Assembly: GCF_003334815.1 (NCBI RefSeq)
Contig: NZ_QOWO01000002.1
Strand: one strand, 5' to 3'
Length of the DNA: 64,000 nt
DNA from: Escherichia coli
Lineage (GTDB): Bacteria; Pseudomonadota; Gammaproteobacteria; Enterobacterales; Enterobacteriaceae
Made by a program: the position numbers and the translations under genes. Under the pieces are notes generated by a model. The model saw only the letters and a program-made list of their open reading frames with translations. It made no database searches and was not told the DNA's origin. Shown here in pieces: positions 15,677-22,846 of the stretch. The number at the start of each line of letters is the position of its first letter. Positions within the stretch are counted from its first letter, which is position 1.

Positions 15677-16103
15677 TCAAATTCTCCCGTCATTATCACC
15701 TCTGCTACTTAAATTTCCCGCTTTATAAGCCGATTAAATGATGAATAAACGCCCCTGTTAATGAATATCTGGCATGTTGTACTAAAAATCGATGTTTTGC
15801 TTTGACAATCCCCTGGTGTTTTGCGAAAACATTCGAGGAAGAAAAAAAACAGTATTCTTATATGCGCATAACCATGCATGTAAATACCATGTTTACCGTG
15901 CTAGTGAAATCTACGTATGGCGTGGACAGACGCCATTCGTGATGTCGATAGCTGCCACAAGGCAACGGTCTTCTCACCGTAGACCCAGGCATTGCGCGCC
16001 GTGAATCTTCATGATTTCGGTCTATCGTGACGGGTAGCGACTCTGAACAGTGATGTTTCAGGGTCAGACAGGAGTAGGGAAGGAATACAGAGAGACAATA
16101 ATA

Positions 16104-16598
16104 ATGGTAGATAGCAAGAAGCGCCCTGGCAAAGATCTCGACCGTATCGATCGTAACATTCTTAATGAGTTGCAAAAGGATGGGCGTATTTCTAACGTCG
16201 AGCTTTCTAAACGTGTGGGACTTTCCCCAACGCCGTGCCTTGAGCGTGTGCGTCGGCTGGAAAGACAAGGGTTTATTCAGGGCTATACGGCGCTGCTTAA
16301 CCCCCATTATCTGGATGCATCACTTCTGGTATTCGTTGAGATTACTCTGAATCGTGGCGCACCGGATGTGTTTGAACAATTCAATACCGCTGTACAAAAA
16401 CTTGAAGAAATTCAGGAGTGTCATTTAGTATCCGGTGATTTCGACTACCTGTTGAAAACACGCGTGCCGGATATGTCAGCCTACCGTAAGTTGCTGGGGG
16501 AAACCCTGCTGCGTCTGCCTGGCGTCAATGACACACGGACATACGTTGTTATGGAAGAAGTCAAGCAGAGTAATCGTCTGGTTATTAAGACGCGCTAA
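16104..16598 (+). CDS. lrp: Leucine-responsive regulatory protein Lrp
   Basis: ORF 16050..16598; start placed at MVDSKKRPGKDLDRIDRNIL (164 aa); AsnC/Lrp HTH. Confidence 0.95.
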   Translation: MVDSKKRPGKDLDRIDRNILNELQKDGRISNVELSKRVGLSPTPCLERVRRLERQGFIQGYTALLNPHYLDASLLVFVEITLNRGAPDVFEQFNTAVQKLEEIQECHLVSGDFDYLLKTRVPDMSAYRKLLGETLLRLPGVNDTRTYVVMEEVKQSNRLVIKTR

Positions 16599-16732
16599 CA
16601 CGGAACAGGTGCAAAATCGGCGTATTTTGATTACACTCCTGTTAATCCATACAGCAACAGTACTGGGGTAACCTGGTACTGTTGTCCGTTTTAGCATCGG
16701 GCAGGAAAAGCCTGTAACCTGGAGAGCCTTTC

Positions 16733-19700
16733 TTGAGCCAGGAATACACTGAAGACAAAGAAGTCACATTGACAAAGTTAAGTAGCGGCCGCCGCCTTCT
16801 GGAGGCGTTGCTGATCCTTATTGTCCTGTTTGCCGTCTGGTTGATGGCTGCCTTACTAAGCTTTAACCCTTCGGACCCCAGCTGGTCGCAAACGGCCTGG
16901 CATGAACCTATCCATAATTTAGGTGGGATGCCCGGTGCGTGGTTGGCAGATACGCTGTTCTTTATTTTTGGCGTGATGGCTTACACCATTCCCGTCATTA
17001 TTGTCGGCGGTTGTTGGTTTGCCTGGCGTCATCAGTCCAGCGACGAATACATTGATTATTTTGCCGTTTCGCTACGCATCATTGGCGTTTTGGCGCTCAT
17101 CCTTACCTCCTGTGGTCTGGCGGCAATCAACGCTGACGATATCTGGTATTTTGCCTCCGGTGGCGTCATTGGCAGCTTACTAAGCACTACGCTACAACCA
17201 CTGCTACACAGTAGCGGGGGAACTATTGCGCTGCTCTGCGTTTGGGCAGCGGGCCTGACGTTGTTCACCGGTTGGTCATGGGTGACCATTGCTGAAAAAC
17301 TCGGCGGCTGGATTTTAAACATTCTCACCTTCGCCAGTAATCGTACCCGTCGCGATGATACCTGGGTCGATGAAGATGAGTATGAAGACGACGAAGAGTA
17401 TGAAGATGAAAATCACGGCAAACAGCATGAATCACGCCGTGCCCGTATTCTTCGCGGCGCGCTAGCGCGTCGTAAACGGTTGGCGGAAAAATTCATTAAT
17501 CCGATGGGGCGGCAAACAGACGCTGCGTTGTTCTCCGGTAAGCGGATGGATGATGACGAAGAGATTACCTACACTGCACGCGGTGTGGCTGCCGACCCGG
17601 ACGACGTCCTATTTTCGGGCAATCGTGCAACGCAGCCAGAATATGACGAATACGATCCATTATTAAACGGTGCGCCAATTACCGAACCTGTCGCTGTAGC
17701 AGCTGCTGCTACCACGGCGACACAAAGCTGGGCTGCGCCGGTTGAACCTGTGACTCAGACGCCGCCTGTTGCCTCTGTTGATGTTCCACCTGCGCAACCT
17801 ACAGTAGCCTGGCAGCCTGTACCGGGTCCACAAACGGGAGAGCCGGTTATTGCTCCTGCACCGGAAGGTTACCCACAGCAGTCACAATATGCGCAGCCTG
17901 CAGTGCAATATAATGAGCCGCTGCAACAACCAGTACAGCCGCAGCAGCCGTATTATGCACCTGCAGCTGAACAACCTGCGCAACAGCCGTATTATGCCCC
18001 TGCGCCAGAACAACCGGTGGCAGGTAACGCCTGGCAAGCCGAAGAGCAGCAATCCACTTTTGCTCCACAGTCTACATACCAGACTGAGCAAACTTATCAG
18101 CAGCCAGCCGCTCAGGAGCCGTTGTACCAACAGCCGCAACCCGTTGAACAGCAGCCTGTTGTGGAGCCTGAACCCGTTGTAGAAGAGACAAAACCCGCGC
18201 GTCCGCCGCTTTACTACTTTGAAGAAGTTGAAGAGAAGCGAGCCCGTGAACGTGAACAACTTGCGGCCTGGTATCAACCGATTCCAGAACCGGTTAAAGA
18301 ACCAGAACCGATCAAATCTTCGCTGAAAGCACCTTCTGTTGCAGCAGTACCTCCAGTAGAAGCCGCTGCCGCTGTTTCCCCGCTGGCATCTGGCGTGAAA
18401 AAAGCGACACTGGCGACGGGGGCTGCCGCAACCGTTGCCGCGCCAGTCTTCAGTCTGGCAAATAGCGGTGGACCGCGTCCTCAGGTCAAAGAGGGGATTG
18501 GTCCGCAGTTGCCACGACCGAAACGTATCCGCGTGCCAACTCGTCGTGAACTGGCGTCTTACGGTATTAAGCTGCCCTCACAGCGTGCGGCGGAAGAAAA
18601 AGCCCGTGAAGCCCAGCGCAATCAGTACGATTCTGGCGATCAGTACAACGATGATGAAATCGATGCGATGCAGCAGGATGAACTGGCACGTCAGTTCGCC
18701 CAGACACAGCAGCAACGCTATGGCGAACAGTATCAACATGATGTGCCCGTAAACGCAGAAGATGCAGATGCTGCGGCAGAGGCTGAACTGGCTCGTCAGT
18801 TTGCGCAAACTCAACAACAACGTTATTCCGGCGAACAACCGGCTGGGGCGAATCCGTTCTCGCTGGATGATTTTGAATTTTCGCCAATGAAAGCGTTGCT
18901 GGATGATGGTCCACACGAACCGTTGTTTACGCCAATTGTTGAACCTGTACAGCAGCCGCAACAACCGGTTGCACCGCAGCAGCAATATCAGCAGCCGCAA
19001 CAACCAGTTCCGCCGCAGCCGCAGTATCAGCAGCCACAACAGCCGGTTGCGCCGCAGCCACAATATCAGCAGCCGCAACAACCGGTTGCGCCACAGCAGC
19101 AATATCAGCAGCCGCAACAACCGGTTGCGCCGCAGCAGCAGTATCAGCAGCCACAACAGCCAGTTGCGCCACAACCGCAGGATACCCTGCTTCATCCGCT
19201 GTTGATGCGTAATGGCGACAGCCGTCCGTTGCATAAACCGACGACGCCGCTGCCTTCTCTGGATTTGCTGACACCGCCGCCGAGCGAAGTGGAGCCGGTA
19301 GATACCTTTGCGCTTGAACAAATGGCTCGCCTGGTGGAAGCGCGTCTGGCTGATTTCCGTATTAAAGCCGATGTCGTCAATTACTCTCCGGGGCCGGTTA
19401 TCACTCGCTTTGAATTGAACCTGGCACCGGGCGTAAAAGCGGCGCGCATTTCTAACTTGTCACGGGACCTTGCCCGTTCACTTTCGACGGTGGCGGTGCG
19501 TGTCGTTGAAGTTATTCCTGGCAAACCCTATGTAGGTCTGGAGTTACCGAATAAAAAACGACAAACCGTTTATCTGCGCGAAGTTTTGGATAACGCCAAA
19601 TTCCGCGATAATCCGTCGCCATTAACCGTGGTGCTGGGTAAAGATATCGCCGGTGAGCCGGTGGTTGCCGATCTGGCGAAAATGCCGCACTTGTTGGTTG

Positions 19701-20722
19701 CGGGGACTACCGGTTCCGGTAAATCTGTCGGTGTGAACGCGATGATCCTGAGCATGCTTTATAAAGCACAGCCAGAAGATGTGCGTTTCATCATGATCGA
19801 CCCGAAAATGCTGGAGCTTTCGGTTTATGAAGGCATTCCGCATCTGTTAACGGAAGTCGTTACTGATATGAAAGATGCCGCCAACGCGCTGCGCTGGTGT
19901 GTTAACGAGATGGAGCGTCGGTATAAACTGATGTCTGCGCTGGGTGTGCGTAATCTGGCGGGTTATAACGAAAAAATTGCTGAAGCCGATCGCATGATGC
20001 GTCCGATTCCAGACCCGTACTGGAAGCCGGGTGACAGTATGGATGCCCAGCATCCGGTGCTGAAAAAAGAACCATACATTGTGGTGTTGGTTGACGAATT
20101 TGCCGACCTGATGATGACGGTAGGTAAAAAAGTGGAAGAGCTGATAGCACGTCTGGCGCAAAAAGCCCGTGCCGCGGGTATCCACCTCGTACTGGCAACT
20201 CAGCGTCCATCGGTTGATGTTATTACTGGTCTGATTAAAGCGAATATTCCGACCCGTATCGCCTTTACCGTATCCAGTAAGATTGACTCACGTACCATTC
20301 TTGATCAGGCTGGCGCGGAATCACTGCTGGGTATGGGGGATATGCTCTACTCTGGGCCGAACTCCACGTTGCCGGTACGTGTCCATGGTGCTTTTGTTCG
20401 CGATCAGGAAGTTCATGCCGTGGTGCAGGACTGGAAAGCGCGTGGTCGCCCACAGTATGTTGATGGCATCACCTCCGACAGCGAAAGCGAAGGTGGTGCG
20501 GGTGGTTTCGATGGCGCTGAAGAACTGGATCCGTTGTTCGATCAGGCGGTGCAGTTTGTCACTGAAAAACGCAAAGCGTCAATTTCTGGCGTACAGCGTC
20601 AGTTCCGCATTGGTTATAACCGTGCAGCGCGTATTATCGAACAGATGGAAGCGCAGGGGATTGTCAGCGAACAGGGGCACAACGGTAATCGTGAAGTGCT
20701 GGCCCCACCGCCGTTTGACTAA
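16733..20722 (+). CDS. ftsK: DNA translocase FtsK (N-terminal membrane domain, PQ-rich linker, C-terminal motor and gamma domain)
   Basis: 1329-aa ORF starting at TTG 16733; Walker A GTTGSGKS; long Pro/Gln-rich linker. Confidence 0.95.
18949..19182 (+). repeat. In-frame tandem repeat in the FtsK linker, about 6 copies of a 39-bp unit encoding [10 protein letters not shown](Q/P)QY
   Basis: Direct repetition of cagcagccgcaacaaccggttgcgccgcagcagcaatat with minor variants. Confidence 0.85.
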
Positions 20723-20736
20723 CTAATGCATCGTAT

Positions 20737-20768
20737 GCCGGATAAGGCGCGGTAGCGTCGCATCCGGC
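20737..20768. repeat. REP (repetitive extragenic palindromic) element downstream of ftsK
   Basis: gccggataaggcg-cggtagc-gtcgcatccggc imperfect palindrome typical of E. coli REP units. Confidence 0.6.
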
Positions 20769-20880
20769 ACTCTATCAACTGAAAATTCAGTATTTTCTTC
20801 TTTCCTCAAGCTGATTATTAGCCTGGAATAGAGAGTAGAGGGAACTCCCGATCGGGAGTGACGTAATTTGAGGAATAATG

Positions 20881-21492
20881 ATGAAAAAAATTGCCATCAC
20901 CTGTGCATTACTCTCAAGCTTAGTAGCAAGCAGCGTTTGGGCTGATGCCGCAAGCGATCTGAAAAGCCGCCTGGATAAAGTCAGCAGCTTCCACGCCAGC
21001 TTCACACAAAAAGTGACTGACGGTAGCGGCGCGGCGGTGCAGGAAGGTCAGGGCGATCTGTGGGTGAAACGTCCAAACTTATTCAACTGGCATATGACAC
21101 AACCTGATGAAAGCATTCTGGTTTCTGACGGTAAAACACTGTGGTTCTATAACCCGTTCGTTGAGCAAGCTACGGCAACCTGGCTGAAAGATGCCACCGG
21201 TAATACGCCGTTTATGCTGATTGCCCGCAACCAGTCCAGCGACTGGCAGCAGTACAATATCAAACAGAATGGCGATGACTTTGTCCTGACGCCGAAAGCC
21301 AGCAATGGCAATCTGAAGCAGTTCACCATTAACGTGGGACGTGATGGCACAATCCATCAGTTTAGCGCGGTGGAGCAGGACGATCAGCGCAGCAGTTATC
21401 AACTGAAATCCCAGCAAAATGGGGCTGTGGATGCAGCGAAATTTACCTTCACCCCGCCGCAAGGCGTCACGGTAGATGATCAACGTAAGTAG
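20881..21492 (+). CDS. lolA: Periplasmic lipoprotein chaperone LolA
   Basis: ORF 20878..21492; signal peptide [21 protein letters not shown]; start at second Met (203 aa). Confidence 0.9.
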
Positions 21493-21502
21493 AGGCACCT
21501 GA

Positions 21503-22846
21503 GTGAGCAATCTGTCGCTCGATTTTTCGGATAATACTTTTCAACCTCTGGCCGCGCGTATGCGGCCAGAAAATTTAGCACAGTATATCGGCCAGCAACA
21601 TTTGCTGGCTGCGGGGAAGCCGTTGCCGCGCGCTATCGAAGCCGGGCATTTACATTCTATGATCCTCTGGGGGCCGCCGGGTACCGGCAAAACAACTCTC
21701 GCTGAAGTGATTGCCCGCTATGCGAACGCTGATGTGGAACGTATTTCTGCCGTCACCTCTGGCGTGAAAGAGATTCGCGAGGCGATCGAGCGCGCCCGGC
21801 AAAACCGCAATGAAGGTCGCCGCACTATTCTTTTTGTTGACGAAGTTCACCGTTTCAACAAAAGCCAGCAGGATGCATTTCTGCCACATATTGAAGACGG
21901 CACCATCACTTTTATTGGCGCAACCACTGAAAACCCGTCGTTTGAGCTTAATTCGGCACTGCTTTCCCGTGCCCGTGTCTATCTGTTGAAATCCCTGAGT
22001 ACAGAGGATATTGAGCAAGTACTAACTCAGGCGATGGAAGACAAAACCCGTGGCTATGGTGGTCAGGATATTGTTCTGCCAGATGAAACACGACGCGCCA
22101 TTGCTGAACTGGTGAATGGCGACGCGCGCCGGGCGTTAAATACGCTGGAAATGATGGCGGATATGGCCGAAGTCGATGATAGCGGTAAGCGGGTCCTGAA
22201 GCCTGAATTACTGACCGAAATCGCCGGTGAACGTAGCGCCCGCTTTGATAACAAAGGCGATCGCTTTTACGATCTGATTTCCGCACTGCATAAGTCGGTA
22301 CGTGGTAGCGCACCCGATGCGGCGCTGTACTGGTATGCGCGAATTATTACCGCTGGTGGCGATCCGTTATATGTCGCGCGTCGCTGTCTGGCGATTGCGT
22401 CTGAAGACGTCGGTAATGCCGATCCACGGGCGATGCAGGTGGCAATTGCGGCCTGGGATTGCTTTACTCGCGTTGGCCCGGCGGAAGGTGAACGCGCCAT
22501 TGCTCAGGCGATTGTTTACCTGGCCTGCGCGCCAAAAAGCAACGCTGTCTACACTGCGTTTAAAGCCGCGCTGGCCGATGCTCGCGAACGCCCGGATTAT
22601 GACGTGCCGGTTCATTTGCGTAATGCGCCGACGAAATTAATGAAGGAAATGGGCTACGGGCAGGAATATCGTTACGCTCATGATGAAGCAAACGCTTATG
22701 CTGCCGGTGAGGTTTACTTCCCGCCGGAAATAGCACAAACACGCTATTATTTCCCGACAAACAGGGGCCTTGAAGGCAAGATTGGCGAAAAGCTCGCCTG
22801 GCTGGCTGAACAGGATCAAAATAGCCCCATAAAACGCTACCGTTAA
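21503..22846 (+). CDS. rarA: Replication-associated recombination protein RarA (MgsA), AAA+ ATPase
   Basis: 447-aa ORF with GTG start; Walker [10 protein letters not shown]; recognised as RarA/YcaJ. Confidence 0.92.

Follow-up and report, generated by a model that had tools for sequence, protein, structure and literature searches.

A 39-bp in-frame tandem array in the FtsK linker of Escherichia coli is the known typing locus CVN001/ms07

What is a run of near-identical 39-bp units in the coding sequence of the DNA translocase FtsK, and does the number of units matter to the protein that carries them? The question is raised by a stretch of 64,000 nucleotides of Escherichia coli DNA (RefSeq assembly GCF_003334815.1, contig NZ_QOWO01000002.1), referred to here as the window, in which an original prediction, made from the letters alone, had placed about six such units at 18949-19182 within the ftsK linker. 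Six in-frame units are indeed present, at coordinates shifted by one base (18950-19183). They are a long-established E. coli locus of MLVA (the analysis of variable-number tandem repeats at multiple loci), CVN001, also called ms07, and in that sense the array is already known. As to what the array is for the protein, it is very probably a coding minisatellite in a disordered, length-tolerant spacer of FtsK, changing by slippage or unequal exchange and homogenised within species.

Anatomy and identity of the array

The array and its host gene are placed as follows, the gene from the list of open reading frames (ORFs) and its translation, the array from Tandem Repeats Finder (TRF), a listing of units, a test of identity at lag 39 and primer mapping:

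18950-19183, plus strand: 39-bp tandem array of six in-frame 13-codon units, FtsK residues 740-817
18950, 18989, 19028, 19067, 19106 and 19145, plus strand: starts of the six units
16733-20722, plus strand: ftsK coding sequence, 1329 amino acids, TTG start, stop codon included

TRF recovers the period-39 array over 18950-19170 (5.7 copies, 88% matches, score 344). In the frame of ftsK the repeat consists of six complete 13-residue units ending in (Q/P)QY, except that the last unit ends in D, not Y. Identity at lag 39 is 0.872 over the array and 0.50 +/- 0.03 (maximum 0.65) over 10,000 codon shuffles of the same 234 nucleotides, a difference so large that neither composition nor chance explains the repeat. 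Exact runs of up to 32 nucleotides are common to adjacent units, and the codon differences among units, counted pairwise, comprise 52 synonymous and 19 non-synonymous changes. A 117-bp, three-unit period is also scored by TRF (94%). The matrix of unit distances, with 2 nucleotides between the first and fourth units, 3 between the second and fifth and 6 between the third and sixth, the last unit being the most diverged, only weakly suggests a three-unit (117-bp) higher-order duplication.

Could six units be the product of assembly, a collapsed or expanded version of some other length? Short-read and metagenome assemblies do break in the array, and many of the one-unit "alleles" seen in short contigs may themselves be collapses. 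However, many independent complete genomes, a K-12 MG1655 record among them, are 100% identical to the window over the 801 bp around the array (18600-19400), with 1474 records matching this interval at 99% identity or more, and the protein has the 1329 amino acids of the RefSeq annotation. Because the array is 100% identical in so many complete genomes, its copy number in the window is not an assembly artefact, an explanation to which we give virtually no credence.

The identity of the array is settled by published typing primers. CVN001 reportedly belongs to the generic E. coli MLVA of Lindstedt et al. 2007, and ms07, together with a second locus, ms06, to that of Gorge et al. 2008 for Shigella and E. 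coli. We took the primers for all three loci from the tables of secondary papers (PMC8143711, PMC4644529) and not from the original descriptions. Those that bear on the array map to the window at these sites:

18837-18855, plus strand: CVN001 forward primer site, exact and unique in the window (PMC8143711 Table 1)
19262-19281, minus strand: CVN001 reverse primer site, exact and unique in the window
18690-18709, plus strand: ms07 forward primer site, exact and unique in the window (PMC4644529 Table 1)
19257-19276, minus strand: ms07 reverse primer site, exact and unique in the window

The CVN001 amplicon, 18837-19281, is 445 bp long, and the published allele formula, (size - 250)/39 (PMC8143711), yields (445 - 250)/39, or allele 5. 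The ms07 amplicon is 587 bp long, and with the 39-bp unit and the offset of 353 tabulated under "ms07(CVN001)" (PMC4644529 Table 1) it yields (587 - 353)/39, or six units. The CVN001 allele number is one below the count of 13-residue units, as one of these is already contained in the published offset. Both primer pairs sit on opposite strands and flank the array exactly, the unit is 39 bp, the alleles are whole numbers of units and copy number varies between strains; in primers, unit and alleles, CVN001/ms07 and the array are the same locus, with no difference between them. Because the typing papers give no gene name, the placement of CVN001/ms07 in ftsK comes from the mapping of the primers in the window.

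Running TRF over the whole gene also brings out a second 39-bp variable-number tandem repeat (VNTR) in ftsK, which the original prediction had overlooked:

17940-18015, plus strand: second 39-bp linker array, two units, the VNTR ms06
17832-17851, plus strand: ms06 primer site
18113-18132, minus strand: ms06 primer site, closing a product of 301 bp, or two units

Like the CVN001 array, ms06 has a 39-bp unit (PMC4644529 Table 1), is in frame, rich in proline and glutamine (P/Q-rich), polymorphic and part of the same linker; unlike it, ms06 has another unit sequence and fewer copies, and it lies about 1 kb upstream, in mid-linker. In three other complete ftsK genes it reaches three or four units, so that full genes show two, three or four. 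Both linker arrays are thus established VNTR loci, and the window can be typed directly as CVN001 allele 5, ms07 = 6 and ms06 = 2, a ready-made strain marker of the kind that the original prediction had anticipated.

Variation within E. coli and across genera

The locus is present in all 5,426 complete E. coli genomes, and its length varies among them. In a targeted panel of 20 complete genomes, chosen for diversity, we found arrays of 1, 3, 4, 5, 6, 7 and 9 units, together with a five-codon partial unit (QQPQY) and a single-codon deletion; every one of these variants is in frame, and the annotated length of FtsK in the panel runs from 1277 to 1394 amino acids. The differences in ftsK length that lie beyond the CVN001 array are always 0, 39 or 78 nucleotides in the panel, and these remaining differences are accounted for by ms06, which has two, three or four units in the three full genes. 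For a systematic sample we used 59 evenly spaced genomes, queried with the two 150-nucleotide flanks only and with array length taken as the span between the matches. Frequencies from this sample are rough, as it follows BLAST rank and the clinical bias of RefSeq:

5 units: 1 of 59 genomes
5.38 units: 1 of 59 genomes
6 units: 22 of 59 genomes
6.38 units: 1 of 59 genomes
7 units: 27 of 59 genomes
8 units: 4 of 59 genomes
9 units: 3 of 59 genomes

The six-unit allele of the window is the second most common here. Across all 79 natural alleles examined (20 + 59), length differences are without exception multiples of three nucleotides, and the range of one to nine units in complete genomes bears out the earlier expectation that copy number varies between strains. 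Within lineages the alleles mostly look stable: all O157:H7 genomes in the samples span seven units, and 1474-1475 records carry the K-12-type allele at 99% identity or more.

These same data bear on whether the change in copy number is itself adaptive, the array acting as a contingency locus through which selection would tune FtsK or switch it on and off. Copy number is polymorphic within the species, to the point of being used for subtyping, which speaks for such a switch. Yet lengths that are all multiples of three leave no room for switching the frame on and off, and the alleles track lineages, as the O157:H7 and K-12-type genomes illustrate. Moreover, when an 84-bp indel in the ftsK linker was swapped between two strains of Salmonella Enteritidis, survival in egg white, the sole phenotype tested, was unchanged (PMC6137255), so that an allele swap was without effect in the assay used. 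We regard an adaptive switch as very improbable, and its phase-variable, on/off form is excluded outright by a 39-nucleotide unit divisible by three and 79 frame-preserving alleles out of 79.

The conservation of frame also weighs on the possibility that the functional product is read elsewhere, from the antisense strand or another frame. Stop codons are absent from the array in five of the six frames, and all three forward frames are open, with the consequence that mechanical ORFs overlap it on both strands (18578-19321 minus, 18927-19274 minus and 18903-19205 plus). These ORFs could be cited in favour of another product, as could an Rfam match to isrG (RF01390) at 18885-19174 on the minus strand (E about 2e-6). 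However, natural length variants all keep the ftsK frame, and a stretch that is free of stops in five of six frames will produce long spurious ORFs by itself. We think a functional product of this sort exceedingly improbable. As for isrG, a Salmonella family of small RNAs (sRNAs), the antisense match to it in the array is below threshold: in the Rfam scan of 16000-21500 its score is 30.8 bits, where the gathering threshold is 100, with a CUG/GCN-rich alignment and many non-canonical pairs, and we rejected the sRNA as a compositional match.

How far back does the array go? A protein search with FtsK residues 640-900 returned mostly FtsK fragments, which limits the naming of species. Among the sequences that span it, the site of the array lies across genera between invariant islands, FSPMK..GPxEPLFTP before it and a 15-residue island (HPLLMRNG) after it. 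Between these islands, Escherichia-type sequences in the protein search carry 1-7 units and Salmonella-type sequences 8-9 units of 13 residues; in a few others the 13-residue units are related ones (HYQQPAQPVAPQQ) or the period differs. In Klebsiella-type and several other sequences the site is filled by 47-84 residues, P/Q-rich and aperiodic, and an Edwardsiella sequence has 24 residues only. Comparison of nucleotide sequences shows the array at the same place and in the same register in a Salmonella-type locus (7.4 copies) and in a third lineage (3.5 copies).

The Salmonella array is itself a known marker, the 39-bp ftsK VNTR SENTR2, also called STTR7, of which the reference strain has 9.3 copies (PMC2430564). 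It is orthologous to the E. coli array, occupying the same position between EPLFTP and HPLLMRNG, in the same 13-codon register and with the same 13-residue consensus; it differs in having more copies (7-9 in the sequences seen), its own synonymous codons (GTA for valine where E. coli has GTT) and a different first and last unit. Per 39 nucleotides, units differ at 4.0-4.8 positions within species and at 6.8 when those of E. coli are compared with those of the Salmonella-type locus; some synonymous codons are specific to the species. Units that are closer to each other within than between species are a signature of concerted evolution.

A probable disordered spacer and its alternatives

Downstream of the array the features of FtsK are those of the motor:

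19184-20719, plus strand: FtsK C-terminal motor, residues 818-1329, its first codon being the next one past the array
FtsK residues 840-940, plus strand: FtsK_alpha (Pfam, E 9e-30)
FtsK residues 948-1161, plus strand: FtsK_SpoIIIE, with the P-loop (Pfam, E 4.5e-88)
FtsK residues 1264-1324, plus strand: FtsK_gamma (Pfam, E 2.4e-28)

The chain of PDB entry 2IUS, the crystallised E. coli motor of 512 residues, aligns from FtsK residue 818 to the end. These Pfam domains downstream of the array, the alignment to 2IUS, the RefSeq annotation and the lrp-ftsK-lolA gene order identify the host gene as that of an FtsK/SpoIIIE DNA translocase, and the array lies, as first supposed, in its linker, between the N-terminal region and the three domains. 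It adjoins the crystallised construct that starts at residue 818 and lies outside it.

Several observations point to a linker segment that is disordered. The 78 residues of the array include 39 glutamines and 22 prolines, together 78% of the total, and a Pfam scan of FtsK places no domain over the array. AlphaFold2, applied to residues 601-900 with an alignment of 17 sequences, predicts residues 719-821 with no secondary structure and with values of the predicted local distance difference test (pLDDT) below 50. Together with the variability of the segment among genera between conserved flanks, these results are those expected of a P/Q-rich linker with predicted disorder. The E. coli FtsK linker, FtsK_L, has been described as unstructured, P/Q-rich and about 600-650 residues long, with a length and composition that vary between species, and it is held to help position the motor and to contact other divisome proteins (PMC5345879, PMC5357621). 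It is to this FtsK_L (Bigot 2004, Dubarry 2010, summarised in PMC5357621) that the array belongs. That literature treats the linker whole or as large sub-regions, and no function is assigned to the 78-residue array itself in the FtsK linker literature that we consulted. Biologically the array therefore adds nothing new, the FtsK linker being already described as an unstructured tether of variable length.

On this basis we can sketch how the array may arise and persist. Each 39-bp unit adds 13 residues, half of them glutamine and more than a quarter proline, to the flexible tether of this septal translocase, which runs from an N-terminal domain anchored in the membrane to a hexameric motor at the C-terminus, and the array ends with the last linker residue ahead of that motor. 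Since 39 nucleotides make 13 codons and exact runs reach 32 nucleotides, units can be gained or lost without a break in the frame. Replication slippage or unequal exchange between sister strands would add or remove whole units, or parts of them bounded by microhomology, with the frame kept; partial variants may stem from deletions between short internal CCGCA(A/G) repeats. A tether that tolerates changes in length would let alleles of 1-9 units persist, as they do in nature; the linker indel swapped between S. Enteritidis strains, without effect on survival in egg white, also speaks for tolerance. The same process of exchange would keep the units alike within a species by concerted evolution. 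Both the mechanism of slippage or unequal exchange and the near-neutrality of the length changes are what we infer from these patterns.

Some of our results sit less comfortably with a tolerant spacer. The differences among units are mostly synonymous (52 against 19), and the 13-residue unit peptide is kept in both Escherichia and Salmonella; the excess of synonymous changes and the shared unit suggest that the peptide sequence is under some constraint, which a model of a purely inert spacer does not predict. The alleles are also concentrated at 6-7 units (49 of 59), a peak that could reflect selection on length, or else shared ancestry and the sampling bias of RefSeq. The low pLDDT, from an alignment of only 17 sequences, is by itself weak evidence of disorder. 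Finally, we found in the literature no experiment on unit number in E. coli.

The same results would be read differently if the units formed a multivalent module for binding or self-association, acting, for instance, as P/Q "stickers" spaced by tyrosines or as polyproline-II ligands that a partner in the divisome would bind, so that unit number sets valency and is under selection. The preponderance of synonymous over non-synonymous changes, the consensus that is identical in Escherichia and Salmonella and the clustering of alleles at 6-7 units all fit such a module, and parts of the linker do interact with FtsQ, FtsL, FtsI and FtsZ (review PMC5357621, citing Dubarry 2010). However, natural complete genomes manage with just 1, 3 or 4 units, the Klebsiella-type sequences and other genera have no such unit at a site whose flanking islands are invariant, concerted evolution alone is able to keep units alike, and no partner for the array segment is reported in the literature that we found. 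We consider a binding module, the main rival, improbable, and prefer the length-tolerant spacer described above.

A related proposal joins both linker arrays to a second kind of repeat, a pair of 14-residue motifs of the form ELARQFAxxQQQRY that lie between ms06 and the CVN001 array:

18680-18721, plus strand: ELARQFAxxQQQRY motif, copy 1, FtsK residues 650-663
18785-18826, plus strand: ELARQFAxxQQQRY motif, copy 2, FtsK residues 685-698

This pair had been noted as a second, shorter duplication about 200 bp upstream of the array. The duplication is real and lies 124-270 bp upstream, but its copies are dispersed, being 105 bp (35 codons) apart and not in tandem, and it is not a slippage-prone repeat of the same kind. 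The two copies are identical at 14 of 14 residues and differ at 8 of 42 nucleotides, all of them third codon positions and synonymous. The pair recurs in Salmonella-type, Klebsiella-type and other enterobacterial sequences, in which L, R/F, Q, R and Y are invariant, and an Edwardsiella sequence has a recognisable, diverged pair; in the AlphaFold2 model both copies fall in predicted helices with pLDDT 70-80. To judge from this conservation and from the model, the pair appears to be an old, selected and conserved helical motif, and not a slippage-prone repeat. It looks like a functional motif of the linker, and a full-text literature search for the string ELARQFA found nothing. In the proposal, the number of units in both linker arrays would be non-neutral, setting the reach or valency of the tether and so tuning the coupling of division to chromosome clearance, with the peak at 6-7 units due to stabilising selection, and the ELARQFAxxQQQRY pair would serve as a docking site in the linker. 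We hold this two-part scheme to be decidedly improbable.

Assembly behaviour and genomic surroundings

The array was also predicted to be a trouble spot for assembly, and it is. A protein cluster of 90 members (P0049) derives from contigs of 981 bp that recur in six or more independent assemblies, and these contigs map to 18004-18984 of the window, between the last ms06 unit and the first unit of CVN001, in which the contig ends. E. coli, Salmonella and Klebsiella also contribute many further clusters annotated "DNA translocase FtsK, partial" that begin or break off in the array, on contigs 0.5-1.3 kb long. Of the six assemblies inspected, several are metagenomes, in which mixtures of strains also break contigs; the conclusion is therefore that the locus fragments assembly graphs, and it does not extend to a failure of every isolate assembly. 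For short-read assemblies of E. coli and Salmonella the locus is thus a predictable point of breakage or collapse, with FtsK annotated as "partial", and annotation pipelines and core-genome multilocus sequence typing (cgMLST) schemes should expect 39-bp differences in the length of ftsK.

Apart from breaks, the array gives rise to several kinds of odd record. In ten clusters from short contigs (P0014, P0015, P0017, P0019, P0020, P0022 and others) it appears as a one-unit array ending in QQQD, unlike the one-unit allele of a complete genome (L007), which ends in PQPQD. Judged from these endings, the one-unit arrays of short contigs may be de Bruijn-graph collapses of longer arrays and not real alleles. 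Several public "complete" genomes have ftsK split or frameshifted within the array (L031 1-4344, P0039, P0010, P0042, P0080), with translations that include, for example, SPQPQY. As none of the three forward frames is closed in the array, indel errors create no stops and can pass unnoticed as odd peptides.

A plasmid copy of the array, for instance a traD-like repeat, was sought in PLSDB and rejected, all 10 matches being ftsK in chromosomal pieces. The records concerned (H101-H110, among them NZ_OL790696.1 of 4.8 Mb and CP099174.1 of 1.3 Mb) are filed as E. coli plasmids and, by size and content, look like mislabelled chromosomes or chromosomal fragments.

The surroundings of ftsK are those of a K-12 MG1655 record, in whose RefSeq annotation trxB and lrp lie upstream and lolA, rarA and serS downstream, and the ftsK ORF agrees in length and position with the ftsK coding sequence there. 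Window and record differ at 2 of 10,801 nucleotides. At 16749, in ftsK codon 6, the window has ACT (threonine) where the record has ATT (isoleucine), and this difference places the source very close to K-12 but not identical to the record; the ACT allele is the common form, its exact 61-mer occurring in 5048 of 5427 records. At 21813, in codon 104 of rarA, the window has GAA (glutamate) where the MG1655 record has GCA (alanine). None of the 5,426 complete E. coli genomes matches a 61-nucleotide query centred on this position exactly, the best of them with one mismatch; GAA is therefore either a non-synonymous variant private to the source, an error of sequencing or a mutation acquired in the laboratory.

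Two minor features lie in or beside the gene. In the spacer between ftsK and lolA, a weak Rfam match to naRNA4 at 20737-20772 on the minus strand (26.8 bits against a threshold of 59.5, E about 0.1) is possibly a repetitive extragenic palindromic (REP)-like element or a terminator hairpin just past the ftsK stop codon. Near the start of the linker, at 17378-17406, a 9-bp tandem repeat, GAGTATGAA, is present in 3.2 copies (TRF score 37) and encodes part of an acidic stretch of 14 residues.

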